From the NCBI GenBank assembly GCA_965198005.1, contig CBDAOI010000003.1, forward strand, positions 640,001 to 704,000: a stretch of DNA of 64,000 nt, in the 5' to 3' direction. The DNA is from Spirochaetia bacterium (lineage in GTDB: Bacteria; Spirochaetota; Spirochaetia; SZUA-6; Bin103). Of the stretch, positions 13,521-60,753 are shown piece after piece (within the stretch, counting starts at the first letter, position 1; every line of letters starts with the position of its first letter). The notes beneath the pieces are model-generated. The model had not been told where the DNA came from, did not search any database, and saw nothing but the letters and a program-made list of their open reading frames with translations. A program made the translations under genes and the position numbers.

Positions 13521-14594
13521 TCAGGAGTCTTCCAGGCGCGCCAACTCGTCGTCGATGATCGCCGCCAGACTCTCGAACGGCACCGCTCCGGACAGAAAGC
13601 GCCCGTTCACGAACAGCGCCGGTGTGCCCGATACGCCGACAGCCGTGCCCGCGCGGAGGTCGTTGCGCACCGTTTCATAGTGGCGATCGGAGTCCAGGCA
13701 GCGGTCGAACGCGTCCTGATCCAGACCGAGGCGGCCGGCCTTCTCCTGGAGCGCGGGGACCGAGAGCGCGCCCTGCTCCGCGAACATCAGATCATGCATC
13801 TCCCAGAACTTGCCCTGGTCTCCGGCGCACAGCGAGGCTTCGGCCGCCTTCTGGGCATGCGGGTGAATGCCGGTCAGCGGATAGTGGCGGTACACCACGC
13901 GCAGGCGGCCGGCGTACTCCTCCTGGGCCCGCTTCAGGGTGGGCAGAAAGCGGGCGCAGAAGGGACACTCGAAGTCCGAGAACTCGACCAGCGTCACTGG
14001 TGCGTCCGCAGGACCGGTGGCGGCGAACCCGTCGGTGGCTACCGCGAACCGCAGCGGCTGCAGCAGATACTCGACCGCGAACCGATCTTCCAGCAGGGTG
14101 AAGAAGTCATTTCGAGCGAGCCGTAGCGCCTGCCGTTCCAGATAAGCGCGGATCTGGCCCCCCACGTTGGCAAACGGATCTCTGATACGCGCCTTGTTCC
14201 GTTCATAGAACTGCTCGACGTCCTCGTCGCTGATCGGTTGCGCCGCGTCCTGAATCCGCGCCTGGACCGCGGCGACCGTGGTACCGGTCCGCTCTGCTTC
14301 CCGCTCCAGCAATCGCCGGCGCACCAACTCTTGCAGGGATGCTTCGAGCACTTCCTGGCGGCCGCGGTCGGCCTCGGCCTGACACCGCAGGCGCGCCATC
14401 TCGTTCTCTTCGAGCGCCTGCGTCGCGGTGGCGAGAAGCTCGGCGCGCATGACCTCCTGCTCGCCAATGGTCGCTATCACGTCGCCCTGGTCCGCGCACA
14501 GCAACGGCGCCGCCCCAGCCAGCAATACCACGCCACACCACAGCGCCTTTGCCTTGCCGCCGCAGGTCGACCAGAATCGTTCGAAGACCGTCAC
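13521..14594 (-). CDS. DsbA/thioredoxin-4 family protein with N-terminal helical domain
   Basis: Signal-peptide-like N-terminus; VEFSDFECPFC and GTPALFVNG. Confidence 0.88.
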   Translation of the reverse strand: MTVFERFWSTCGGKAKALWCGVVLLAGAAPLLCADQGDVIATIGEQEVMRAELLATATQALEENEMARLRCQAEADRGRQEVLEASLQELVRRRLLEREAERTGTTVAAVQARIQDAAQPISDEDVEQFYERNKARIRDPFANVGGQIRAYLERQALRLARNDFFTLLEDRFAVEYLLQPLRFAVATDGFAATGPADAPVTLVEFSDFECPFCARFLPTLKRAQEEYAGRLRVVYRHYPLTGIHPHAQKAAEASLCAGDQGKFWEMHDLMFAEQGALSVPALQEKAGRLGLDQDAFDRCLDSDRHYETVRNDLRAGTAVGVSGTPALFVNGRFLSGAVPFESLAAIIDDELARLEDS

Positions 14595-14909
14595 TTCACA
14601 AGCCAGCGTACGCCGCGAAGCGCTCCGCCGTCAAGGTGGGCGGCGATTCTGCAGCAATTCTCGGTGAACGGCTGGTAGAGGGGCAGAGTGTCATAAGCTC
14701 AAGCCCTCCGAGTGTGAAACGCGACCATGCCCACCTGTTGGCCCACCGAGTGAACTCCCGTGAAAGGCAAGCACGCACGGTCCGACCGGCAGAAATTCTG
14801 TAACTGATTGCAGGTGATGTATTTAGCCACCGTCAAGCAGCCCCGTGCGATGACCTGACCACCGTCAGCCACCGCCGCTCGGCCGATGCCGCGGGCTGGC
14901 GCGGTGCAG

Positions 14910-15392
14910 CGACACCCAGGCGTTTTGATAGGTGGTCGTGCCGGCACGTACGATGCGGTAGTGCACGAAGTTGATCTTGGGACTGCGGGGGTTGCCGTTC
15001 AGCGGCACCCCGGTAACCCACGTCGATGGTGCCGCGGTGGTCCAGCAGCCGACCGCGGCGCAGCCCGTCGATATCCTGGTACAGGCTGGTGTGATCCTCC
15101 GGCTTGGCCACCAGCAGAAACGAGCAGCGGGCGGCGCGCACCTGTTCGATGAACGGTTGCTTGGAGTACAGACTATCGGCGACGATCACCGCAGCCAGCC
15201 GGGGATGGTCGTTACGGATGCGCTGCAAGGCACGGTAGCCGGCTTTTATTTCACAGTCTTGCTTGCGGCGTTTGGCATTCTTGGCGCCAGAGTCATCGGC
15301 GTTGTGAATGAACCCGGGAGCCAACGGCAGCACCTGCCGCTTGTCGGGGTGGACGATGGCGGTCTGCAGGATGTCGTGGTGGTAGCGTACGG
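14910..15392 (-). pseudogene. ISNCY-like DDE transposase internal fragment
   Basis: AIVHPDKRQVLPLAPGFI...KQDCEIKA...VIVADSLYSKQPF...FLLVAKPEDH. Confidence 0.7.
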
Positions 15393-15570
15393 TGAGGTGG
15401 TCCTGGAAAATTGGACAGGAGGTTAAGGTGTATTCGAGGCCATGAGGAGGGCCAAGGAGATGGCGACGACACGACGTCGATTCACAGCGGAGTTCAAGGC
15501 ACGGGTAGTGGTGGAAGCGTTGCGCGGTGACCGCACGATCCAGGAGATCGGGGCCAAGCACCGCGTTGAT
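15393..15570 (+). mobile_element. IS3-family left end and truncated OrfA
   Basis: TG-initiated end TGAGGTGGTCCTGGAAAATTGGACA followed by MATTRRRFTAEFKARVVVEALRGDRTIQEIGAKH. Confidence 0.75.
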
Positions 15571-15724
15571 CATCGCGCCGCAAAAGGTCGCCCGACGACT
15601 GGTAGGCGATCACCGCTGCGGTTCTCACCTTGTTCCCGGCAGCCTCGTTGTAGAAGCTTTGGATGGTAGGTGAGGTGGACGGTCACCCGCGCGCAGGCGC
15701 GTGGCCCCCATGCGGGCTCCTCTT

Positions 15725-16621
15725 TCAAACCGACCTGGCGGCATCGGCACCCAGGCGGCCCCCACCACCCCTCAGCCGCGGGTCGAGCAGATCCCGCACC
15801 GCATCGCCGAACATGTTCAGGCAGTAAACGGTGAGAGTCAGAGCGAGACCAGGCCACAGAGCCAGCCATGGGGCAATTTCCATGAACTGACGCCCTTCCC
15901 GGCTGAGCATGCCACCCCAGCTCGGAACACTCGGCGGCAGACCGAATCCGAGAAAGCTCAAGGACGCCTCGCTGATGATCACTCCACCGATGTTGATGGT
16001 GAATATGACGATTACGACCGGCATGATATTGGGCAGGACGTGTCGGATGAATGTTCTCCATTTTGAGGAGCCAACCGACTCCGCCGCATCAAAATACGCA
16101 TTCTCCTTTATGTCGATAACGGCGCCTCTTACGGTTCTCGAGCCGACGATGCCTCCCGTTAATCCCAGCACCGCTATGATCTGTGGCATACCCCGCCCCA
16201 CTATCGACATTACGGTCAACAACAGGAGCAGTCCCGGAAAAGCCATCCAGGCGTCGACAAATCTCTGCACGGCCAGGTCCAGTTTGCCGCCAAGGAATCC
16301 AGAAATGCCGCCTATCAGGACAGCGACGACAGCATTGAGAGCGGTCGCCGCCAGACCGACCGTGAGCGAAAGACGAGCTCCGTGGATAAGGCGGCTCAGG
16401 AAGTCTCGCCCCACGTAGTCGGTACCCAGGAGAAATTTGGCTGACGGGCCCTGCAGAATGTCTGACTTGTGTATTTCCATATGACCATAGGGAGACAAAA
16501 CATCAGCAAGGATACTGACAAGAATCAGCATCAATATGATGATCCCGCAGGCGGTGCCCAGTGGCTTCGTCCGCCACATCCTGGTAAGGAAATCAGCGAG
16601 GTTGTTACGTTCTCTATTCAT
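15725..16621 (-). CDS. Peptide/nickel ABC permease (OppC/DppC-like), cassette 1
   Basis: LGTD..GRD.LSRLI.GAR.SL, EAA loop, RHVLPN, EASLSFLGFG. Confidence 0.93.
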   Translation of the reverse strand: MNRERNNLADFLTRMWRTKPLGTACGIIILMLILVSILADVLSPYGHMEIHKSDILQGPSAKFLLGTDYVGRDFLSRLIHGARLSLTVGLAATALNAVVAVLIGGISGFLGGKLDLAVQRFVDAWMAFPGLLLLLTVMSIVGRGMPQIIAVLGLTGGIVGSRTVRGAVIDIKENAYFDAAESVGSSKWRTFIRHVLPNIMPVVIVIFTINIGGVIISEASLSFLGFGLPPSVPSWGGMLSREGRQFMEIAPWLALWPGLALTLTVYCLNMFGDAVRDLLDPRLRGGGGRLGADAARSV

Positions 16622-17618
16622 AGCGGACCCGGGGGTCCAAGTAGGGATAAATCAGGTCAATCGCCAGATTGATCCCGATGACCGCGGTGGCGAACAATAG
16701 GTTGATTCCGGAAACCACTGGGTAGTCCCTCGCATTGAGGGCAAGCACGAAGACACGACCTATCCCCGGCAGGTTGAAGATGTTCTCCATGATGACGGAG
16801 CCGCCTACCAGGATAGGCATCTGCAGGCCTATCAGCGTAACCACCGGGATGAGGGCATTCTTGACGGCGTGCCTGATAACAACTGCCCTCTCCTTGAGTC
16901 CTTTTGACCAGGCGGTCCGGATATAGTCTTGCCTGAGCACCTCCAGCATCATGGTGCGCGTCATCCGCATTGTGGCTGCAGCCATGCCCGTCCCCAGAAT
17001 CAGGCTGGGAATGATGAACACCCCCAGATTCTCCAGCGGCTCTTCCGTGAAACGAATCCACTCCATCGGTGGCGACCAGCCCCACCAGACTACCGGGTAG
17101 ACCATGACCATGGTTCCGAGCCAGAAGTTAGGCGTTGCCAGGCCGATGATGGCGGCCGAGCGCCCCGCGTAGTCGGCGGCCGTATCCTGGCGAATCGCAG
17201 CGTAGATGCCCACCGGCAGGGCGATCACCAGCCCAATCACGATTGCCAGGAGGCCAAGCTCGATGGTTACCGGCAATCTACCGACTATCTTCCTCTCTAC
17301 CGGCAAACGGCCGCTTACCAGCGAGCGCCCGAGACTGCCCTGAAGGAGACCGGTGAAATGAGACTCACCGGTACGCCAGTCAGGGGTCGGCAACACTCCT
17401 ATCCAGCGTCCATACTGCACGTGGACGGGCACGTCCAGTCCCAGCATACGCTCGAGAGGTTCACGGTCCCTGCCGCCCGCTCTGTACACCGCCGCTTCAG
17501 ACTCCATTACGTCGATGACATCGCCGGGGATGAAGCGCACCGAGAGGAAGACCAGGATGCTCAATATAAACAAGGTGGGGATTATCAGCAATAACCGCCT
17601 GATGATGTAGGCTCTCAT
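16614..17618 (-). CDS. Peptide/nickel ABC permease (OppB/DppB-like), cassette 1
   Basis: MRAYIIRRLL, RMTRTMMLEVLRQDYIRTAWSKGL, LDPRVRY. Confidence 0.93.
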   Translation of the reverse strand: MRAYIIRRLLLIIPTLFILSILVFLSVRFIPGDVIDVMESEAAVYRAGGRDREPLERMLGLDVPVHVQYGRWIGVLPTPDWRTGESHFTGLLQGSLGRSLVSGRLPVERKIVGRLPVTIELGLLAIVIGLVIALPVGIYAAIRQDTAADYAGRSAAIIGLATPNFWLGTMVMVYPVVWWGWSPPMEWIRFTEEPLENLGVFIIPSLILGTGMAAATMRMTRTMMLEVLRQDYIRTAWSKGLKERAVVIRHAVKNALIPVVTLIGLQMPILVGGSVIMENIFNLPGIGRVFVLALNARDYPVVSGINLLFATAVIGINLAIDLIYPYLDPRVRYE

Positions 17619-17634
17619 ATCCTTCGTGGTAAAT

Positions 17635-17666
17635 GGGCGCCGGGAAGCCCGAGGCTCCCGGCGCCC
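17635..17666 (-). terminator. GC-rich hairpin between the SBP and permease genes
   Basis: GGGCGCCGGGA / TCCCGGCGCCC inverted repeat. Confidence 0.55.
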
Positions 17667-17750
17667 TTCGATGCAGCCAGAACGAGCGCGAAAACGCTCG
17701 TGGACCCCGCCCCTAGGCGCGGTCCCGGCTGCAACGCCGCAGGCGTTGCG

Positions 17751-19541
17751 TCAGAAACCCATTCCTCTCTTCAGATCCTGGTCGATCCAGAGGCGAGGAA
17801 CGACGACTCCAGCGTCTATCGTTTCACCGTTAAAGCCGGTGACCCACGGCTGCGTCACAGTAAATACCAGCGCTCTACCAAGCCATAGATGCCAGTGGTT
17901 CTCTACGAGGTACATATTTGCCTCTCTGACTAACCTCTGCTGCTCCTCATGGGTAGGGGCGCTTTCTGCGGCTTCAACCATGGCGTCATAGGCCGGTTCC
18001 CGCACACCGGCGGGGTTCCATGTCGAGGTCGATACATTCTGTCCGAGCGGGCCGAGTATGCTATGATAAAACCCGATGGCTTCACTCGTCATGCCCTCAT
18101 AGGTATGTTCTCGTAGACGGCCAGCCCAAGTCGCCGAATCCATTGGTTGGAGCTCGACCTCAACGCCAATCTCACTAAAGTATGCTACGGCCAATTCGTG
18201 AAGGCCTAGATCACCTATATCTCTAAAGTCCAGGCCAGTCTTGAATCTAATGCCGTCGGCGCCGCGAGGATATCCGGCCTCATCAAGCAGCGCTTCTGCC
18301 CCTTTCGGGTCGTAGGTATAGTACTGCTGGATGTCTTCGGGCCAATCTTCAAACGGCAGCACATACCCGACCACTGCGTCCGACATATACCCTACAGGTA
18401 CCCCTAATGACCAACCCTTCATGTAGGTATTGCTCACTGTCTCACTGTCCCATGCCATCTGCATTGCGTGGCGTACCCTGATGTCGTTAAAGGGCGGATT
18501 TTGCGCGGACAGAGCAATACCCAGCCCCCAAAGGTAATGGGGAACGACTTGGATGTCGGGGTTGATCTGCTGGAGATTCGCTACCGTATTGACGTCCTGT
18601 ATTTGAGAACCGAAAAGAAAACCTAGGTAGTCGGTCTTACCCGAGCGCAGCGCCGCCAGACGTGTTGCCTCGTCGGGCATAATCATCACCTTCAACTCGT
18701 CAACATAGGGCAAGCGGTTCTCCGGGTATTTCTCATCGAATCCCCAGTAGTTGGGATTCTTCTTGAAGGTAATGGAGCTGCCTTCGACCCAATCAGCGAG
18801 TTCGAAGGGCCCGGTACCGACCAAGTTCCTCCAGTCCGTAACGTCGCCGTGTTGCTCGATTACTTCGGGGGGCAATATGCACATAGGGTACCCAAAGACG
18901 ATTTCACGAAAGGCCTGCAGGTTTGGCTTTTCTATGGTAAAGACAACCGTATGTTGGTCGGTTGCCGTTATCGATTCGATTCCCGCTTCGTCGACTCCTC
19001 CCCACTGGGCAATGTTGGGGCTGAATTCGGTATAGCCGCTGCCCAGACCCGTATAGCGATGCCAGTTATATTCGACATCCTTGGCAGTGAGCTCCCGACC
19101 GTTCATCGGCGCCTTGTCATGCCAGTTAACGCCCTGGCGGATGTGAAAGGTAAAGGTGAGGCCGTCGGCGGAAATGTCCCAGCTTTCCACCAGACGACCT
19201 GTTCTGGCAGAGTCAGGTATGTAGGCGCCTGCAAGGTCAAATTCGTCCCTATCTACTGCCCAGTCGAGATTGCCCAGCTGCTCGCACACGAACTCGTTAG
19301 CACCTCTTGTAGGATGTCCGAAGAAGGCGTCGGAACCCGCAGGGTCGGACAGCCGGGTCGCGGTGAATGTCCCGCCATACTGTGGCGCGGACACCAGCTT
19401 GCCGGTGGTCGGGTCGAGCACGATTTCCCTTTCGGCTGCCGCTGCCGGCTCCGTGTCTGTGGCGCCACCCGCCCAGAGGCCGGTCGCGGTCAGAACGAGG
19501 ACCAACGCAATCGCGAAGGTCCTTGAAAAAAATATCTTCAT
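17751..19541 (-). CDS. Family 5 ABC substrate-binding protein (OppA/DppA-like), cassette 1
   Basis: Start at MKIFFSRTF (ATG 19541, purine-rich RBS). Signal peptide ...TGLWAGG; LVESWDIS.DGLT.TF.IR, GTGPF. Confidence 0.93.
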   Translation of the reverse strand: MKIFFSRTFAIALVLVLTATGLWAGGATDTEPAAAAEREIVLDPTTGKLVSAPQYGGTFTATRLSDPAGSDAFFGHPTRGANEFVCEQLGNLDWAVDRDEFDLAGAYIPDSARTGRLVESWDISADGLTFTFHIRQGVNWHDKAPMNGRELTAKDVEYNWHRYTGLGSGYTEFSPNIAQWGGVDEAGIESITATDQHTVVFTIEKPNLQAFREIVFGYPMCILPPEVIEQHGDVTDWRNLVGTGPFELADWVEGSSITFKKNPNYWGFDEKYPENRLPYVDELKVMIMPDEATRLAALRSGKTDYLGFLFGSQIQDVNTVANLQQINPDIQVVPHYLWGLGIALSAQNPPFNDIRVRHAMQMAWDSETVSNTYMKGWSLGVPVGYMSDAVVGYVLPFEDWPEDIQQYYTYDPKGAEALLDEAGYPRGADGIRFKTGLDFRDIGDLGLHELAVAYFSEIGVEVELQPMDSATWAGRLREHTYEGMTSEAIGFYHSILGPLGQNVSTSTWNPAGVREPAYDAMVEAAESAPTHEEQQRLVREANMYLVENHWHLWLGRALVFTVTQPWVTGFNGETIDAGVVVPRLWIDQDLKRGMGF

Positions 19542-19562
19542 CGTTTCTTCCTTGAATGTTAT

Positions 19563-19727
19563 TTCGAGAGTATTGCGGAGCGGATTGCCTCCCTGGCTAC
19601 TCTCGGGCCCGCAATGCGGACGGCCAGTCTGAGTCAATTTGTGAAGCGCGCGGCGTGTGACTCGGCGGGTTCACCCCAGGGCTCACGCCGCGCGCCTACG
19701 GTTCTTTGAGTATCATTCGACCTCCTT
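19563..19727 (-). promoter_or_regulatory. Type-1 SBP leader: SD + micro-ORF MILKEP (19716-19696) + 12-bp hairpin + GAGAG/CTCTC stem
   Basis: AAGGAGGT precedes the ATG. Inverted repeats at 19646-19657/19684-19695 and 19565-19572/19598-19605. Homologous to 44862-45051 and 36474-36532. Confidence 0.65.
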
Positions 19728-20003
19728 CTTCTCTAGATCTACGTCGGGATCTGCGTTATAACGCCACGCGTGGTGGTGGTCTGAGCAGCAGCGAGTCTGA
19801 ATGGCCGGCAACGCTGGGGGTGTCGCCGGCCGGGATCCGGGACGGTTGCGGTCGCCGGGAAGGGCGCGGGCGGCCCGCATGCCGGTTCGGCGATGGGCGG
19901 AGCCGGCGCCACCGATAGCTACGGCGGTGGTGAAGGCGACGGCGTGCGCGGGGGGGGGCGGGGCATAAGCGCTAACTTGTTGTGGGGGCCTACAGGGGCC
20001 ATG

Positions 20004-20148
20004 CATGACTTTACTGTGCGACCGTACCACGGACGTGCGACTCGGATCAACCAGCCGCGTCGAAAAAATCGAAGAAATCTGACCGCTCATGGCCCTACGG
20101 TGCGACCGTATCACGGCCCCGCGACTCGCGTCAACCACCTGCGTCGAA
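20004..20148. repeat. Two imperfect ~60-bp direct repeats, period 84 bp
   Basis: GTGCGACCGTA(C/T)CACGG...GCGACTCG...TCAACCA..GCGTCGAA at 20004-20064 and 20088-20148. Confidence 0.75.
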
Positions 20149-20151
20149 GAA

Positions 20152-20649
20152 CAGCGATTCTGGGGGAACGGCTGTGTAGAGGAGCAGAGGTGCATCACGA
20201 ACAGTAGCAACATTGGAAGCGAAAGGTTACAGAAAAGTTTCGAGGGCGAGATCGCAAGCCCGGTCATAAGCTCAAGCCCTCCGAGTGTGAAACGCGACCA
20301 TGCCCACCTGTTGGCCCACCGAGTGAATGCACGCACGGTCCGACCGGCAGAAATTCTGTAACTGATTGCAGGTGATGTATTTAGCCACCGTCAAGCCAGC
20401 CCGGTGCGATGACCTGACCACCGTCAGCCACCGCCGCTCGGCCGATGCCGCTGGCTGGCGCGGTGCAGCGTTCGGCCCTTCGGGGCCGGTTGCCCGCGCG
20501 CCGCCGGCACACCTGCGCCGCAGCCCCAGTCAGGGATCGTTCAGGGAGCAGGTTCAGTTCTCCAGGGAGCGGCTACCCGGACAGCGGCTGCGGCGGCGAG
20601 TTCATCCGCACCAGCACCTGGTCCCACGTCCGTTCACCGAGAATTGCTG
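20152..20649. mobile_element. MITE-like copy forming the right end of the composite element
   Basis: Degenerate IR CAGCGATTCTGGGGGAACGG at 20152. 20263-20470 is near-identical to 14690-14910. Perfect IR at 20630-20649; no transposase. Confidence 0.75.
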
Positions 20650-20750
20650 GCGATTCTGCGATTCGAGAGATTCGACGGCCTTCCTGGTTGTCTTACCGCG
20701 TTGATCAAGGTCCCGTCGTATGGTCATGATGGTGCGCACCGACCACCACC

Positions 20751-21686
20751 ATGAAGACCTGTTTTCTGTTTCCCGGGCAGGGGGCGCAGTACCCCGGCAT
20801 GGGCAAGGACCTGTGGGAGGCGAGCGCCGCCGTGAGGGAGCTGTTCCGCCTCGCATCGGACGTGACCGGGATCGATCCGGAGGCCCTCCTGTTCAGCGGC
20901 AGTGAGGCCGACCTGCAGGCGACCAACCGCACCCAGATCGCGGTTACGCTGGTGAATCTGGCGGCGGCCCGGGTGCTGGCGGAACGCGGCGCCGTCGCGC
21001 ACGGCTACGCGGGCTTCAGCGTCGGCGAATACGCGGCGCTGGCGGCCGCCGAGGTGATCTCCACCCGTGACCTGTTCGCGATCGTCCAGGCGCGCGGTGA
21101 GCTGATGGAGAGCGCCAGCCGCGACGCCGATACCGCCGGCGGCCGCGCCGGCATGGCGGCGGTGATCGGGCTGGCGCCGGATCGGGTGACCGCCGCGGTG
21201 GCCCGCGCCGGGGCCGGCGTGTACGCCGCCAACTACTCCAGTCCCAGGCAGGTGGTGCTGGCGGGCACGGCCGAGGGGCTGGCGCGCGCCGAGGAAGAGT
21301 GCACGGCGGCCGGTGCCCGGCGGTTCATCCGGCTGAAGGTCTCGGGGCCGTTTCACTCACCGTTGATCGACTCCGCCCGGCAGCGGTTCGCGCAGGTGGT
21401 CGAGGGATTCGAATTCCGCGATCCGGTGACGCCGGTGTACGCCAACGTGACCGGAAAGCGTGTCACGCGCGGCAGCGACGCCAAGCGCCTGTGTGTCGAC
21501 CAGATCGTCTCGAGCGTGCAGTGGGTGACGGAGATCGACACGTTGCTCGGCGACGGCTACCTCAGGTTCGTCGAGAGCGGCCCCGGCACCGTGTTGACCG
21601 GGCTCATGCGGGCGTTCGATACTGATGCGCGATGCGTTCCCGGGGGAACCCTGAAGGATGTGGAAGCGGTGGCAGCCGCGGATTGA
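20751..21686 (+). CDS. fabD: Malonyl-CoA:ACP transacylase
   Basis: FLFPGQGAQYPGMG, GFSVGEY, ANYSSP.Q.V, VSGPFHS. Confidence 0.95.
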   Translation: MKTCFLFPGQGAQYPGMGKDLWEASAAVRELFRLASDVTGIDPEALLFSGSEADLQATNRTQIAVTLVNLAAARVLAERGAVAHGYAGFSVGEYAALAAAEVISTRDLFAIVQARGELMESASRDADTAGGRAGMAAVIGLAPDRVTAAVARAGAGVYAANYSSPRQVVLAGTAEGLARAEEECTAAGARRFIRLKVSGPFHSPLIDSARQRFAQVVEGFEFRDPVTPVYANVTGKRVTRGSDAKRLCVDQIVSSVQWVTEIDTLLGDGYLRFVESGPGTVLTGLMRAFDTDARCVPGGTLKDVEAVAAAD

Positions 21687-43027: not shown

Positions 43028-44839
43028 CTAATGACCCATTGCCTCCTTCAGCTCACTATCAATCCAGAGGCGGGCGAAAAGTGGAATACTGTCCCCGGTT
43101 GGGTCATTTTCACCGTCATAACCTATGATCCACGGCTGGGACACATTAAAACTTGGAACTCTCGGACCCGCGAACCACCAGTGATTCTCTATGAGGTACA
43201 TATTTGCCTCGTTGACCAGCCTCTTCTGCTCCTCAATGGTGGTAGCGGCTTCGGCGGCTTCATACATGGCGTCATAAACCGTGTCGTTGACGTTGGGGGG
43301 GTTCCATCCTGAGGCCGAGTAAGCTCCCGTTAACGGCAGAAGCGCGGGCTGATAGTCGGCGTTTGAAACTTGAGTAACCAGACCTTGCTGCTTATGCTCT
43401 CGCACAAGAGCCGTATAAGCAGTTCCGTCAACTACCTGCACCTCTACAGCAATGCCAATGGCACGCAAGTATTCGATGACTATCTGGTAATAGTCTAAAT
43501 CGAATGGCCCGTAGTGGTCATAGACGGTGCGGAATCTTACGCCGTCCGCGCCGCGAGGTAATCCAGCCTCATCAAGCAACGCTTCTGCCCCTTCCGGGTC
43601 ATAGGTATAGTATCTCTTGAGCTCTTCGGGCCAGTCTTCAAATGGGGTGAAATACCCGATAAGACCTGTCCCTATCTGCCCTGCAGGCGTCGTATCTGCC
43701 CAACCGTGGAAGTAGGTATCGTTAATTGTCTCAAGGTCGACTGCCATCTGTATTGCGCGGCGCACCGTGACGTCGTTCCAGGGTGGCATCTGCACGTTAA
43801 AAGTCATAGCCGTATCCGCACGAAATGAAAATGGCCACAGGTTCAGTTCGGGGTTGGTCCGCTGGAGGCTTACCGCCGTATCGATGCTCCTTATTATTGT
43901 GCCGCCCGCCCGACCGATGTAATCAGCCTTACCTGTACGCATTAACGCCAGATTTGTCGCTTGTTCCGTCGATATCAGGGACCTTATCTCGTCAACATAG
44001 GGCAGGCGGTTCTCGGGGTACTTTTCGTCGTAGCCCCAGTAGTCAGGATTCTTGGTATAGGTGAGGGAACTGCCCTCGACATGGTCAGTCAGCTCAAAGG
44101 GCCCGGTGCCGACCACGTTCCTCCAATCCGTAACGTCGCCGTATTGCTCGACTACCTCGCGGGCCATTATCCATCCGAGACTTCCAAGGAGGATTTCCTT
44201 CAGCGCTTCGAGGCGTATCGACTTCAGCTTAAAGACAACCGTCCATTTGTCGGTGGCCGTTATCGATTCAACATTCATCTTTTCGAGGGGATGAGCGGCA
44301 GCGGCAACATCAAAGCTAGGTTCGGCTTCACTGAAGTCGCCCAGGCCCAATATACGCTGAAAGCTATATTCTATATCCTCGGCAGTTAGCTCCCGACCGT
44401 TCACGGGTGGCTTGTTGTGCCAGTGAACGTCCTGGCGGATGTTGAAGGTATAGGTGAGGCCGTCCGGGGAAATATCCCAGCTTTCAGCCAGCCTCCCTGT
44501 TACGGCAGACAGAGGGACGAAACCTGTCAAAAAGTCAAATACGTCCCTATCTAATGCCCAGTTCCAGTAGCCTAGCTTCTCATTAACACCCGAGATAGTG
44601 TTTGTCGCGGTGTACGAGAAATAGGGGTCAATATTCTTACCGATGTTAGACTGGACTTGGGTGAATGTCCCGCCGTACTCCGGCGCGGTCACCACCTTGC
44701 CGTTGGTGGGGTCGGTCACATACTTCTTGTCGGCGGCGGCTGCCGAGCCCTCCTCTGCGCCACCCGCCCAGAGGCCGGTTGCGGTCAACACGAGGACCAA
44801 CGCAACCGCGAAGGTCATTCTAATTCTTACAATATTCAT
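43028..44839 (-). CDS. Family 5 ABC substrate-binding protein, cassette 2
   Basis: Signal peptide ...TGLWAGG; LAESWDISPDGLTYTF, GTGPF. Confidence 0.93.
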   Translation of the reverse strand: MNIVRIRMTFAVALVLVLTATGLWAGGAEEGSAAAADKKYVTDPTNGKVVTAPEYGGTFTQVQSNIGKNIDPYFSYTATNTISGVNEKLGYWNWALDRDVFDFLTGFVPLSAVTGRLAESWDISPDGLTYTFNIRQDVHWHNKPPVNGRELTAEDIEYSFQRILGLGDFSEAEPSFDVAAAAHPLEKMNVESITATDKWTVVFKLKSIRLEALKEILLGSLGWIMAREVVEQYGDVTDWRNVVGTGPFELTDHVEGSSLTYTKNPDYWGYDEKYPENRLPYVDEIRSLISTEQATNLALMRTGKADYIGRAGGTIIRSIDTAVSLQRTNPELNLWPFSFRADTAMTFNVQMPPWNDVTVRRAIQMAVDLETINDTYFHGWADTTPAGQIGTGLIGYFTPFEDWPEELKRYYTYDPEGAEALLDEAGLPRGADGVRFRTVYDHYGPFDLDYYQIVIEYLRAIGIAVEVQVVDGTAYTALVREHKQQGLVTQVSNADYQPALLPLTGAYSASGWNPPNVNDTVYDAMYEAAEAATTIEEQKRLVNEANMYLIENHWWFAGPRVPSFNVSQPWIIGYDGENDPTGDSIPLFARLWIDSELKEAMGH

Positions 44840-46196: not shown

Positions 46197-46366
46197 CACC
46201 GCTTCTCGGTGAACGGCTGGTAGAGGGGCAGAGTGTCATAAGCTCAAGCCCTCCGAATGTGAAATGCGACCATACCCACCTGTTGGCCCACCGAGTGAAT
46301 GCACGGCCCAATACTATAACTTATTGTAGGTGATGTAGTTAGCACCGTCAAGCAGCCCGGTGCGAT
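46197..46366. mobile_element. Third copy of the transposon end sequence
   Basis: TTCTCGGTGAACGGCTGGTAGAGGGGCAGAGTGTCATAAGCTCAAGCCCTCC... matches 14658-14851; the outer IR bases have diverged. Confidence 0.8.
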
Positions 46367-54014: not shown

Positions 54015-55811
54015 ATGAGATTTTTCAAAACAGGCCTCGCGATACTGTGCGGCCTGGTTCTGACCGCGACCGGCCTCTGGGCCGCTGGCGCAGAAGAGGC
54101 ACCGGCAGCCGCCGCCGACAAGAGGTATGTGACGGACCCCAGCACAGGGGAGCTAGTGGTCGCGCCAGAGTACGGCGGGACATTGACCTTCCCCACTACT
54201 AAGGAGTTTGAGATTGCCGACGCCTGGTTCATTAGTGGCAACGCCAGTTCGTTCGTCTCCGGCGTTCTAGAGAAGCTAGTTATAGGAGACTGGGCAGTAG
54301 ATAGGGACGAATGGGACTGGCAAGGTCCAAACGTACCTCCAGAATACTTGATAGGGCAACTGGCGGAAAGCTGGGAACAGCCCGACGACACAACTTATGT
54401 GTTCAATATCCGTAAAGGCGTTCACTGGCATGATAAGGCGCCGATGAACGGGCGGGAGCTAACTGCCAAGGATGTCGAATATAACTATCACCGCATATTG
54501 GGTGTGGGCAGCGGCTTCACCGAACCTAGCCCATCATTACATGATATGAGGTCTGTGCAATTCGAATCGATAACGGCCACCGACGACTATACCGTTGTTT
54601 TCAAGCTGAAGCGGCCACACATCAATCCGCTCCCGCTTATCACGGACTGGTGGACAAATTACATATACCCCCCCGAGGTAATCGAGCAATACGGCGACGC
54701 CAAGGATTGGAGGAACCTGGTCGGCACCGGGCCCTGGATGCTGACTGATTGGGTCGAGGCCAGTTCCTATAACTTCATCAAGAATCCTGACTACTGGGGG
54801 TTCGACGAAAAATACCCGGAGAACCGCTTGCCCTATGCTGACGAGTTAAAGGCCCTCGTTATGCCAGACGAGGCAACACGTCTGGCAGCAATCCGCTCGG
54901 GTCGGGTTGATCTGGGAAGTTCGGTGGGCACTATCTCCACTGACATCAAGTCTATCGACCAGGTCGAGAGCCTCCAGCGGAGCAATCCCGAAATCGAGCT
55001 GCACAAGGTTTCCATCCGCTCGAACCATGCTTTTAGTATGAACCTGAATAACCCGCTTTTTAGCGACATTCGAGTGCGTATTGCATTGCAGAAGGCACTG
55101 GACCTCGAGACAATTGCCAATACCTTCTTCAAGGGATATGCAAACTGGGAACCTCGCGGGGTAGTAGGGACTTCTCTCAAGGGCTATTACGAACCATATG
55201 AGGAGTGGCCCGAGGAGATCAAGGAACGCTATACCTATGACCCGGCAGCGGCAGAAGCGTTACTCGATGAGGCCGGATTTCCTCGTGGTGCCGACGGCAT
55301 TAGATTCGAGACTACCAGCCTTGCCTGGGGGCACGCACCCACAGGCTATCAAGAATTGGCCTCTGCATACTGGCGTGAGATTGGCGTTGCTGTAGAGATC
55401 GAGGCAATGGAGTCCGCTCAGTTAGCCAAAATAGCGAGCTCCTCAATGCATGAAGATATGCGCAGCGGGGAGATGAGCCATCATTATCTCGCTGAGCACC
55501 TTGTGGGTCGCTGGTCCGGCAACGTGTGGAACCCCGCCGGCCAATTTTCGGACCCGACTTTTGACGCCAAGCTTGAGACCATGCGAGCTACTACTGACCT
55601 CGAGGAGTACAAGAGGCTGTTTAGAGAGCTGGATATGTACGCGACTGAGAAGCACTGGTATATATGGGGGCCCGAGTCCCCACAGTTTAACTGGAATCAG
55701 CCGTGGGTCATAGGTTATAATGGTGAAACCACGCTGGGTTATGGTCAAGCTTATCAGATGTTGGCCCGCCTCTGGATTGATAGTGAGCTGAAGAGCGCAA
55801 TGGGTCAATAG
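54015..55811 (+). CDS. Family 5 ABC substrate-binding protein, cassette 3
   Basis: RBS AAGGAG, start MRFFKTGL, signal peptide; LAESWEQPD, GTGPW. Confidence 0.93.
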   Translation: MRFFKTGLAILCGLVLTATGLWAAGAEEAPAAAADKRYVTDPSTGELVVAPEYGGTLTFPTTKEFEIADAWFISGNASSFVSGVLEKLVIGDWAVDRDEWDWQGPNVPPEYLIGQLAESWEQPDDTTYVFNIRKGVHWHDKAPMNGRELTAKDVEYNYHRILGVGSGFTEPSPSLHDMRSVQFESITATDDYTVVFKLKRPHINPLPLITDWWTNYIYPPEVIEQYGDAKDWRNLVGTGPWMLTDWVEASSYNFIKNPDYWGFDEKYPENRLPYADELKALVMPDEATRLAAIRSGRVDLGSSVGTISTDIKSIDQVESLQRSNPEIELHKVSIRSNHAFSMNLNNPLFSDIRVRIALQKALDLETIANTFFKGYANWEPRGVVGTSLKGYYEPYEEWPEEIKERYTYDPAAAEALLDEAGFPRGADGIRFETTSLAWGHAPTGYQELASAYWREIGVAVEIEAMESAQLAKIASSSMHEDMRSGEMSHHYLAEHLVGRWSGNVWNPAGQFSDPTFDAKLETMRATTDLEEYKRLFRELDMYATEKHWYIWGPESPQFNWNQPWVIGYNGETTLGYGQAYQMLARLWIDSELKSAMGQ

Positions 55812-59040: not shown

Positions 59041-60753
59041 GAAGAGGGGTCGGCTGCTGCTGCCGAGAAGGAGTACGTGACCGATCCGTCCACCGGCAAG
59101 CAGGTGCTCAAGCCGGCGTACGGCGGGACCATTACCGTTGCGCAGCGACCCCTTGGGTTTGACCACGCCGACACGTGGATCAGTCACGCCGGCGGAGTGT
59201 ACGCGGGAGCGGCTCTGGACAAGTTGGGCCAAGCCGACTGGGCAGTCGACCGCAGCGTCAACAAAATGGTGACCTACTATCCGGAGAGCGTCGTCACCGA
59301 CCACCTGGCCGAGAGCTGGGAGAACCCGGATCCGTTGACCTACATCTACAAGATCCGCGACAACGTCTTCTTTCACGACAAGCCGCCGGTGAACGGTCGC
59401 CAGTTTACCGCTGACGATATGGCCGCGAACTACGAGCGCCTGTTCGGCATCGGCAGGTTTGCCGGCCAGGAGCCCGCGGTGCATACGTGGGGGACAAAAG
59501 CCCTGCCTTTCGAGTCGGTAACGGCCACCGACAAGCTGACATTGGTGATCAAGCTGTCGCGGCCAGCCGCGGACACCCATCGGCAACTGTTCGACGACTG
59601 CCACGTCCGGGCATATCCGCCCGAGACCTTCGACATGCTCGGCAACGTCAACAACCTGATCGGCACCGGGCCCTTCATGGTGAACGAGTACGTCAGTGGC
59701 ACCTCGATCACATGGGACAGGAACCCCAACTACTGGAAGGACGACGAGAAGTACCCGGGGAACCGCCTGCCCTACGCCGACAAGCTCGTGATGCTGTTCA
59801 TGAGCGACGAGGCGACCATACTTGCGGCACTGCGGTCGGGCCAGATCGATATCGCCGGGGCGACCGGTAACGTGCTGATCAAGTCGATCGCCAACGCGGT
59901 GCAGCTGCAGAAAGATGTCCCGGGCACGCAGCTCTTCCCGATCGCGCGCCGATCGGAGACGTCGTTGGGGATGAGAATGGATAAGCCTCCCCTTAACGAC
60001 ATCAGGGTGCGCCACGCGCTGCAGATGGCGCTCGACCTGGAGACCGTCAGGGATAACTATTTCTTGGGCTTCGGCGAGTGGCAGCCGATGGGGTCAATCG
60101 GGCCTGCGGTGATCGGTTACAACAACCCCTTCGATACTTGGCCCGAGGAGCTCAAGAAGTTCTGGTCCTACGACCCGGCGGGTGCCGAGCGACTGCTCGA
60201 TGAGGCCGGATACCCACGCGGCGCGGACGGCGTCCGCTTCCAGACCTCGATCTTGATCAGAGGCGACCGGAGCGACGTGGGCTATATGGAGCTGGTAGCC
60301 GGCTACTGGAAGGAGATCGGCGTGGAGGCCGAGATCGAGGCGGTGGACACCGCCACGTACGAGAGACGGCGCCAGGCGTTAGATTTCGACGGATTGAAAG
60401 ACTTCTGGGCCGTCGGCGCCGACTACGGGGATCTCAACAGTACCCTCGGCCAGTTTCGCGACGACTCAACTTTCAGGGCCGGCACCTTTAGTGACCCGGT
60501 GTTCGAGGCCAAATATGACGAGTTACAGGCTGCCGCTGGTGACGCGGAGGAGCACCGACGGCTGGCGAAGGCGCTCGACATGTACGTCATCGAGCAGCAC
60601 CCCTACATCTATGGTCCGCGGGTTGCAACGTTCAACGTTGCGCAGCCATGGATCGTCGGCTACAACGGCGAGATGGCGATCGGCAACTGCGCCTGGAACG
60701 GGCCGTACGCGCGCATGTGGAACGATAGTCAGCTCAAGGCCGAGTTGAACTAA
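58960..60753 (+). CDS. Family 5 ABC substrate-binding protein, cassette 4
   Basis: Start MRFFKTGL; LAESWENPD, GTGPF. Confidence 0.93.
   Translation: MRFFKTGLAILCGLVLTATGLWAAGADEEGSAAAAEKEYVTDPSTGKQVLKPAYGGTITVAQRPLGFDHADTWISHAGGVYAGAALDKLGQADWAVDRSVNKMVTYYPESVVTDHLAESWENPDPLTYIYKIRDNVFFHDKPPVNGRQFTADDMAANYERLFGIGRFAGQEPAVHTWGTKALPFESVTATDKLTLVIKLSRPAADTHRQLFDDCHVRAYPPETFDMLGNVNNLIGTGPFMVNEYVSGTSITWDRNPNYWKDDEKYPGNRLPYADKLVMLFMSDEATILAALRSGQIDIAGATGNVLIKSIANAVQLQKDVPGTQLFPIARRSETSLGMRMDKPPLNDIRVRHALQMALDLETVRDNYFLGFGEWQPMGSIGPAVIGYNNPFDTWPEELKKFWSYDPAGAERLLDEAGYPRGADGVRFQTSILIRGDRSDVGYMELVAGYWKEIGVEAEIEAVDTATYERRRQALDFDGLKDFWAVGADYGDLNSTLGQFRDDSTFRAGTFSDPVFEAKYDELQAAAGDAEEHRRLAKALDMYVIEQHPYIYGPRVATFNVAQPWIVGYNGEMAIGNCAWNGPYARMWNDSQLKAELN

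Follow-up and report, generated by a model that had tools for sequence, protein, structure and literature searches.

Architecture of the 5998-bp unit

The window considered here is a 64,000-nt stretch of a Spirochaetia genome (C3:640001-704000 of the 4.89-Mb, 66% G+C assembly G000, which has four contigs), and all coordinates without a contig name refer to it. Between a gene for a DsbA-like protein and fabD, the window contains a 5998-bp unit (14652-20649) in which a transporter gene cassette is bracketed by two remnants of one insertion sequence (IS). The unit begins with the 20-bp terminal inverted repeat (TIR) CAGCAATTCTCGGTGAACGG at 14652-14671 on the plus strand and ends with the exact reverse complement of this repeat at 20630-20649 (20/20 positions complementary). 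The nonamer GCGATTCTG is found at both 14643-14651 and 20650-20658, forming a 9-bp direct repeat around the unit, such that the perfect inverted ends and the 9-bp target duplication claimed in the original prediction, an earlier reading of this DNA from its letters, are both present. The outer TIRs are identical to the ends of full-length copies of the IS. A third, inner end, CAGCGATTCTGGGGGAACGG, is located at 20152-20171; it has the strand orientation of the left end and three mismatches (17/20). With up to three mismatches allowed, the 20-mer has four matches in the window compared with 0.00 expected from 100 shuffles, which excludes chance.

Both IS remnants, IS-L and IS-R, map in direct orientation onto one reference IS (C3:892492-894379). 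The end of the IS that is distal to the transposase gene is termed the A end and the opposite end the B end, with the transposase gene reading from B to A. The ~260 bp that follow the left end are repeated after the inner end with 96-100% identity. The unit is composed of three parts: a truncated IS copy (IS-L, 14652-15394), a cassette of one substrate-binding protein (SBP) gene and two ATP-binding cassette (ABC) permease genes with its leader, and a 498-bp IS deletion derivative (IS-R, 20152-20649). On the cassette (minus) strand, the order is IS-R (B to A), the promoter-like leader, the SBP gene, the two permease genes, a scar, and IS-L, which ends in its A end. The features of the locus are as follows.

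13521-14594, minus strand: left neighbor, DsbA-like gene with a SurA_N-like N terminus and a thioredoxin/DSBA domain (PF13462, E 4e-27; PF01323, E 8.9e-25)
14605-14634, minus strand: promoter-like target by the outer left end, TTGACG (14629-14634), 18-nt spacer and TACGCT (14605-14610), pointing to the DsbA-like gene; putative promoter
14643-14651: left 9-bp target duplication, GCGATTCTG (sequence)
14652-14912, plus strand: IS-L A end, 20-bp TIR (14652-14671) and subterminal non-coding region, reference positions 1-307 (reference IS mapping)
14913-15394, minus strand: IS-L transposase pseudogene fragment, reference positions 767-1274 (reference IS mapping)
15391-15566, plus strand: first 176 bp of an unrelated 1441-bp IS (IS-X) with the start of an HTH_Tnp_1 OrfA (PF01527), cutting IS-L
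15578-15663: 86 bp identical to C3:900476-900561, lying in the scar that separates IS-L from the cassette
15725-16621, minus strand: ABC permease 2, OppC/DppC type, intact (PF00528, PF12911; 86.5% amino-acid identity to the ortholog of the congener G001)
16614-17618, minus strand: ABC permease 1, OppB/DppB type, intact (PF00528, PF19300; 85.9% amino-acid identity to the G001 ortholog)
17751-19637, minus strand: substrate-binding protein SBP_bac_5, intact, single copy (PF00496, E 4.8e-68)
19638-20151, minus strand: cassette leader, made of multicopy repeat modules (repeat comparison)
20152-20649, plus strand: IS-R, 498-bp deletion derivative in the same orientation as IS-L (reference IS mapping)
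20650-20658: right 9-bp target duplication, GCGATTCTG (sequence)
20751-21686, plus strand: right neighbor, fabD, malonyl-CoA-ACP transacylase (PF00698; 75-79% amino-acid identity to congeners)

IS-L is without reference positions 308-766 and has an additional 26-bp deletion near 15020; the 26 nt deleted are present in another copy in the public run X1. The transposase fragment of IS-L matches residues 124-296 of the intact 460-residue protein at 132 of 178 residues. IS-X is inserted into IS-L and was truncated afterwards, its full extent of 1441 bp and its left terminus being defined by four full copies at 98-99% identity (C4:277957-279397, C4:1029592, C4:259147, and C3:31660). IS-X also has a weak IS66 TnpA-like match. 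IS-R consists of the inner A-end TIR (20152-20171) and reference positions 1-462, followed directly by the final 27 nt of the B end with its perfect TIR at 20630-20649, and it keeps the last 18 transposase codons (TWDQVLVRMNSPPQPLSG, ending in the stop) at 20575-20629 on the minus strand.

Five internal junctions of the unit were tested genome-wide. Four of these occur a single time (the two IS deletion junctions, the IS-L/IS-X junction, and the IS-X truncation point), and the fifth, between the leader and IS-R, recurs at two other loci (C4:1319071 and C2:443497). These junctions bear on the nature of the right end, which had been predicted to be a miniature inverted-repeat transposable element (MITE). 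IS-R is short and carries TIRs (17/20 and 20/20), but its flanks differ (GTCGAAGAA versus GCGATTCTG) and its deletion junction is found once in the genome, which identifies it as a one-off derivative and not a multicopy MITE. The left end is likewise no MITE, being a truncated full IS copy. The remainder of the predicted contents, namely a transposase fragment and an intact SBP-permease-permease operon with its leader, is as described.

The leader holds two tandem units 84 bp apart (20004-20067 and 20088-20151). Each contains a TTGAC(G)/TTGATC hexamer, an 18-nt spacer, and TACGGT, and the pair of the distal unit is located at 20129-20134 (TTGACG) and 20105-20110 (TACGGT). The two units look like tandem promoters and may function as such. 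Leader modules are 80-97% identical between cassettes with coding regions that are only 72-82% identical. An Rfam scan of 14400-20900 gave no match at E up to 0.1. As a separate observation on the ends, GCGATTCTG matches nt 3-11 of the subfamily-II TIR, which begins with CAGCGATTCTCGG, at 8/9 positions; this may be chance or an old end remnant.

The IS family and the position of TTGAC outside its A end

In G000, the TIR has 107 matches with up to four mismatches, including 24 exact ones. Complete elements range in length over 1.88-2.15 kb, and one of them encodes an uninterrupted 460-residue protein (L001:1101-2483) that matches Pfam DDE_Tnp_1 with 27.2 bits (cut-off 23) and DDE_Tnp_1_assoc below threshold. 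Among NCBIfam models, its scores are far below the cut-offs for IS701 (22.2 of 150) and IS4 (15.8 of 115). A large protein collection contains at least 7358 homologs of the transposase at E up to 1e-5, named just "transposase" or "hypothetical protein". More specific names come from a plasmid search, in which 17 records have a match; the Prokaryotic Genome Annotation Pipeline (PGAP) gives the label "ISNCY family transposase" to three cyanobacterial genes, which are 31-36% identical to the query along 86-90% of its length. The Nostoc and Gloeothece elements start with CAGCAATTCTC, the same 11 nt as this IS, and the Acaryochloris element starts with CAGCAATTGT; direct repeats of 9-10 bp flank two of the three. 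In other genomes, a perfect 9-bp duplication is found at 32 of the 44 loci for which both ends were recognized. These labels, tips, and repeats agree with the ISNCY guess of the original prediction and support the assignment of the IS as a probable ISNCY-like element with 9-bp duplications.

Within ISNCY, the IS is a possible member of the ISMae2 group, which is characterized by 9-bp direct repeats and CAG ends. In common with that group, this IS has a DDE transposase of ~440-460 residues, a length of 1.4-2.2 kb, 9-bp direct repeats, and CAG ends. It is unlike that group in the non-coding DNA that follows the transposase gene, which in the G000 copies reaches the unusual length of 400-660 bp. 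Genes without stops exist (at least one full 460-residue frame; C4:393949-395328) and could supply the transposase in trans that the prediction calls for. A search with the transposase at E up to 1e-30 gave no match in 17 of the 24 related genomes searched. The transposase at G001:C1:825541-826917 has 96% protein identity to a G000 copy, and housekeeping genes of the two genomes are ~75-79% identical, a likeness that suggests a possible recent exchange of the IS between species. The available portions of PMC2779907 and PMC11448079 give neither ends nor a direct-repeat length for the group.

The ends of the IS are strongly associated with SBP genes. Among 91 ends in G000 (TIR matches with up to three mismatches), 57 are located within 800 bp upstream of an SBP start, whereas random positions give 2.0 on average and at most 6 (200 trials). 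The outside of the element faces the gene in 57/57 cases, and these include no B-type end, of which there are 14. Such an end is found upstream of 45 of the 135 SBP genes. Similarly, in the congener G001, 17 of 28 ends lie upstream of an SBP gene, and every one of these 17 has its outside turned towards that gene.

Alignment of the flanks reveals what these positions share: GTCAA is located 22 nt before the TIR, which makes position 18 the first base of TTGAC when the flank is read away from the A end. The layout outside the A end is the 9-nt duplication, 8 variable nt, and TTGAC, which is 17 bp from the end. In 50 distinct non-B flanks of G000, TTGAC starts at position 18 in 14, at 19 in three, and at 17 in one (18/50), and as a control, none of 13 B-end flanks has TTGAC at positions 17-19. 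In 27 flanks of G001, it starts at position 18 in nine and at 19 in three (12/27). When the two genomes are pooled and flanks that are at least 60% identical over 40 nt are dropped (50 of 104 kept), TTGAC is present at positions 17-19 in 19/50, with no other position above 1. In this pooled set, the information content is highest at positions 18-22 and rises again at 42-43 (T/A, A).

The same placement is observed outside these two genomes. From 79 fetched loci with relatives of the transposase, with record titles that include Spirochaetia, Arenicellales, Alphaproteobacteria, Bryobacterales, and others, 44 in which both ends could be recognized by pattern were kept and 35 were dropped. TTG is found at position 18 outside the transposase-distal end in 22/44, with every other position at or below 3, compared with 4/44 outside the opposite end. 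When only the 32 loci that have a perfect duplication are considered, TTG is found there in 17 at the transposase-distal end and in one at the other end. Over the 44 loci, positions 18, 19, and 20 are T, T, and G in 34, 30, and 27 cases, respectively, position 42 is A in 21, and TAnnnT at a spacing of 16-19 nt is present in 11/44 A-side flanks versus 1/44 B-side flanks. A literature search, which was not exhaustive, found no account of a target preference of this kind in the IS group. The new result is that the A end is placed, family-wide and in one orientation, with a -35-like hexamer 17 bp downstream of it.

The target pattern resembles a sigma-70-type promoter, with a -35 element TTGACA, a 17-18-nt spacer, and a -10 element TAnnnT, and the targets may accordingly have promoter activity. 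A simple promoter scan returned three sites versus 2.2 expected, none of them at the TTGAC sites discussed here; these were missed because TTGACG-N18-TACGCT scores 8/12 and the threshold is 9/12.

Both A ends of the unit (14652 and 20152) conform to the TTGAC rule. On the minus strand outside 14652, the order is CAGAATCGC, CGCCCACC, TTGACG, 18 nt, and TACGCT, with the GTG start of the DsbA-like gene at 14594; the conformity of this end indicates that it was placed by the transposase before the DsbA-like gene. Outside 20152, the order is TTCTTCGAC, GCAGGTGG, and the TTGACG, 18-nt spacer, and TACGGT of the distal leader unit, and IS-R is by the same reasoning a typical insertion before a cassette leader. 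No matching TTCTTCGAC repeat is found beyond the B end of IS-R at 20649. With TTCTTCGAC on the leader side and no partner past 20649, the B end of IS-R has left its original flank. Targeting of the 64-nt leader unit as such was considered and rejected, as only 5 of the 91 ends abut a leader unit; the TTGAC rule took its place.

The closest parallels are other elements that are placed relative to a fixed feature. Tn7 at attTn7 and yeast Ty3 at the start sites of RNA polymerase III are inserted at a fixed distance and in a fixed orientation, with the recognized feature outside the duplicated target and coding sequence avoided. ISs that target repetitive extragenic palindromic (REP) sequences, insofar as the available portion of PMC1525189 describes them, likewise show target-specific placement relative to a short recognized feature. 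In contrast to these systems, the feature here is TTGAC 17 bp from the transposase-distal end, together with a weaker TAnnnT 17-18 bp further on, and the element is a one-gene DDE IS.

Origin of the unit

The original prediction placed the unit between dsbA and fabD, and the flanking genes are indeed a DsbA-like gene and fabD. The two are, however, not conserved neighbors: the DsbA-like gene is not beside fabD in any of six congeners, its orthologs (58-68% identity) being far from fabD, and no cassette is found upstream of fabD in any of the six. In G009 (L018:1577-3088), and at the same place in G010 and G003, an unrelated open reading frame (ORF) of ~500 residues is located between fabH and fabD, and no homolog of this ORF is found anywhere in G000. 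The fabD region has thus been rearranged more than once. The exact empty site is not readable in the congeners; none was seen upstream of fabD in the six, in which the intergenic DNA is unalignable and fabD is only 75-78% identical. None of the joints listed among the public run contigs, which cannot show absence, connects 14651 to 20659.

The best paralog of the cassette SBP in the genome is 54% identical, and no second copy of the unit or cassette is present in the assembly. Orthologs with 70-73% identity are found in three of ten congeners (G001, G003, and G006), one in each, followed by permeases that are 83-87% identical. These orthologous cassettes occupy three different neighborhoods, none near fabD. 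With a single copy here and orthologs elsewhere in the congeners, the cassette has moved rather than multiplied; it was relocated and not duplicated. Synteny with G001 points to C4:1340 kb as its former site, but the surroundings of the ortholog are different again in G003 and in G006; since the three disagree, no ancestral site can be named. The copy of the leader/IS junction at C2:443336-443566 was considered as a recent donor and rejected, being only 94% identical and truncated. Among public contigs, run X2 contains a cassette that is 96-98% identical, one contig of which diverges from the window beyond 15681, and a metagenome scan with the SBP gave nothing above 73% identity. Sponge metagenomes are among the public runs that hold a small share of the stretch.

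The unit contains no ABC_tran gene and is not a complete ABC importer operon. Genome-wide, Opp/Dpp-type uptake cassettes are very strongly expanded: 133-135 SBP_bac_5 genes are present in 4.9 Mb, against 62 ABC_tran matches. Most SBP-permease-permease units thus appear to have no ATPase of their own, and such units would share ATPases. Other Opp/Dpp-type uptake cassettes in the window are exemplified by 43316-44503, 54351-55442, and 59299-60465, and the congeners have numbers of SBP matches similar to that of G000.

Three of the four features of a compound transposon are present: two IS remnants, intact outer inverted ends, and one 9-bp duplication. The 5998-bp element is best read as a compound-transposon-like unit that would have been moved whole by transposition, and the chances that this is correct are judged to be about even. 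It is favored: it agrees with all the features seen, and one event suffices, versus two or three for its rivals. IS-R would first have landed before the cassette leader, with its A end 17 bp upstream of TTGAC and co-oriented with the gene, and IS-L would be a second copy downstream of the cassette. Transposase supplied in trans from an intact copy, such as that at C4:393949-395328, could then have used the A end of IS-L at 14652 and the B end of IS-R at 20649, and the whole unit would have been inserted upstream of the TTGACG before the DsbA-like gene, duplicating GCGATTCTG. Internal deletions and the insertion of IS-X would have killed both IS copies while the outer ends stayed perfect; the order of these events is conjectural.

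Similar to Tn10, Tn5, and Tn9, the unit has two copies of one IS around passenger genes, intact outermost inverted ends, and one target duplication of the length typical of the IS; in such transposons, the transposase is provided by one copy or in trans. The main differences are that both IS copies are dead here (one truncated, one a 498-bp derivative), that the passenger is an SBP-permease-permease cassette with a leader rather than a resistance gene, and that movement of the unit would have to be read from a single copy.

Several points weigh against transposition of the whole unit. A second copy of the unit, an empty site, or a donor site was not found in the assembly, the six congeners, or the metagenome scan, and several full-length IS copies (about half of those inspected) have no matching flanks. 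Recombination gives exactly the same product and is clearly frequent in this genome. Compound transposition works with either orientation of the two IS copies, whereas the recombination and cointegrate routes need the direct one. IS-L and IS-R share two blocks of ~65 nt with 100% identity and a private 1-nt deletion, which is the expected trace of a crossover or gene conversion. Finally, the compound route would presuppose that the transposase can move 6 kb and that a B end of 27 bp suffices.

Recombination is the strongest rival, a serious but tentative one. A simple IS or MITE would have inserted upstream of the DsbA-like gene, making the GCGATTCTG repeat; a circle of IS, leader, and cassette, excised elsewhere by recombination between two directly repeated IS copies, would then have joined the resident copy by a RecA-type crossover within region 1-307. 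In structure, this route fits as well as compound transposition: the parts should come in exactly the order seen, with the IS copies in direct orientation and the outer duplication kept, and the two blocks of perfect identity suit a crossover. IS-IS recombination is common in the genome, as evidenced by the copies with unmatched flanks and by flank pairs that are swapped (C3:712207 and C3:923284), and direct arrays of IS, leader, cassette, and IS, such as that at C4:393849-401154, are possible sources of circles. In addition, a natural lineage at C4:581196 has a direct-type terminus and an IS-R-like body that is 96% identical to 20262-20632. However, three events and the survival of a non-replicating circle are needed, neither a simple-IS state of the site nor a donor scar was found, and the IS-R deletion junction is unique, such that the resident copy must have been deleted in place or been a one-off MITE. 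IS-L mixes two subfamilies, a mosaic that is explicable without a crossover: natural lineages with the same mix exist, and the mosaic consequently does not discriminate between recombination and transposition.

Such a route has precedents. F integrates through IS copies to give Hfr (high frequency of recombination) strains. In Hfr formation and in the translocatable units of IS26, a circle of IS and passenger joins a resident IS, leaving direct repeats and the duplication of the resident. IS26 uses its own transposase, in contrast to the present case, for which only RecA-type recombination can be proposed and neither a circle nor an intermediate was observed.

An unresolved cointegrate is improbable as an alternative to compound transposition. 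Here, a circle with one IS and the cassette would have been fused by replicative transposition, which duplicates the IS and leaves the donor DNA between direct copies. The topology, direct repeats inside one outer duplication, is the same, and IS-L and IS-R do share private variants. A fresh cointegrate would nevertheless have identical copies, and the tips of IS-L and IS-R differ at 3/20 TIR positions, a ~73-bp segment being confined to the inner copy and a 16-bp segment to the outer one. Related DDE_Tnp_1 (IS4-type) transposases move by cut-and-paste, which, if it extends to this family, would also count against a cointegrate.

An assembly artefact is hardly credible. The site would in this case hold a simple IS or MITE, from which the assembler threaded via the repeat into a cassette from elsewhere. 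The genome does have dozens of repeat copies, and although public short contigs bridge the left junction (runs X15 and X16) and the right junction (X16), in runs from two studies, one of which may represent the source sample, the parts of the element that they confirm next to these outer junctions are just 21 and 50 bp long. On the other hand, the assembly has four contigs despite more than 100 repeat copies, implying long reads, the repeat common to IS-L and IS-R is short (~220 bp), four of the five tested internal junctions are unique, and the cassette is found nowhere else in the assembly.

Nested insertion into one pre-existing IS, the alternative named in the original prediction, is contradicted by the A-end region, which is transposase-distal and present twice. 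Two independent insertions around a native cassette were rejected, as the outer flanks would then match at 9/9 positions by chance and relatives have no cassette here.

Genome-wide end pairs and the association with transporter operons

In the assembly, 69 pairs of plus and minus ends are found within 40 kb of each other. Three have perfect 9-nt flank matches and one matches at 8/9 positions, compared with none for shifted flanks. The three pairs with a duplication, which include two further cases of the 9-bp duplications of the family, are the following.

C4:1317207-1319087: plain 1881-bp IS, flank TTCTTCGAC
C2:767436-773947: 6512-bp copy, flank TTCGGTGGC
14652-20649 of the window: the present 5998-bp unit, flank GCGATTCTG

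The copy at C2:767436-773947 is long only through two nested ISs, one encoding an 860-residue Transposase_29 protein and the other an IS1182-like protein (DUF772, DDE_Tnp_1, and DDE_Tnp_1_6), and it has no cargo. The combination of a cassette and a duplication is seen in only one of the 69 pairs, the present unit. Of 14 convergent end pairs within 20 kb, two enclose an SBP gene, and only the present unit has a duplication.

These counts bear on the proposal, made in the original prediction, that ends of the IS family routinely mobilize ABC cassettes and thereby drove the expansion to ~135 SBP paralogs. The proposal is very improbable. It draws on the excess of ends within 800 bp upstream of SBP genes (57/91 versus a random mean of 2.0) and on the different contexts of orthologous cassettes in four genomes. 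In all 57 cases, however, the outside of the IS faces the gene, and the cassette is therefore beside the element and not inside it. The scan of TIR pairs, cargo, and duplications that the prediction itself had put forward as a check came out on the refuting side, with an SBP gene enclosed in 2/14 convergent pairs and just one of these with a duplication. The cassette of the unit is a single copy and has no recent paralog (best 54% amino-acid identity). Moreover, the coding DNA of paralogs is 72-82% identical versus 82-100% for IS copies, which places the expansion much earlier than the activity of the IS. In the form that involves duplication of cassettes, the proposal is close to refuted. A better explanation for the IS ends that sit next to so many ABC operons is that insertion is targeted to sites upstream of their promoter-like leaders.

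Other observations on the family concern its flanks and fragments. In two pairs of loci, C3:712207 with C3:923284 (ttcggtggcttc and gaagccaccgaa) and C2:8409 with C3:798401 (gactccggcctt and aaggccggagtc), the flank of one IS copy is the reverse complement of the flank of another, which points to IS-mediated inversions or large inverted duplications. At 46197-46216 of the window (C3:686197), an A-end fragment, CACCGCTTCTCGGTGAACGG, and ~170 bp are duplicated together with their flank at C4:704920. Nested A ends, composed of a 104-bp stub into which a second copy is inserted, are present three times at C4:176-190 kb and 339 kb with identical flanks, which indicates a recent segmental duplication.

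Taken alone, the 6-kb unit is an ordinary kind of object that shows the reshuffling of uptake operons in an IS-rich symbiont genome, and the family-wide target rule is the more valuable result. For annotators, it carries the caution that IS ends beside transporter operons need not make the operon cargo. Both subjects can be joined in a broader proposal, which is speculative and rather unlikely to hold in full. The IS would be promoter-homing, with the transposase, alone or via promoter-bound RNA polymerase, setting the A end exactly 17 bp upstream of the -35 element. This rule would bracket the ~135 leader-bearing cassettes between direct IS copies, turning them into translocatable units and shuffling cassettes among congeners, and the 6-kb element would be the one case in which the duplication is still intact. 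If true, the rule would be a bacterial counterpart of the promoter-directed integration known from yeast retrotransposons and would represent a "safe haven" strategy that spares coding sequence. It might also allow the IS to rewire downstream operons or to read through into them, and it would offer a simple system for how a transposase reads promoter architecture.

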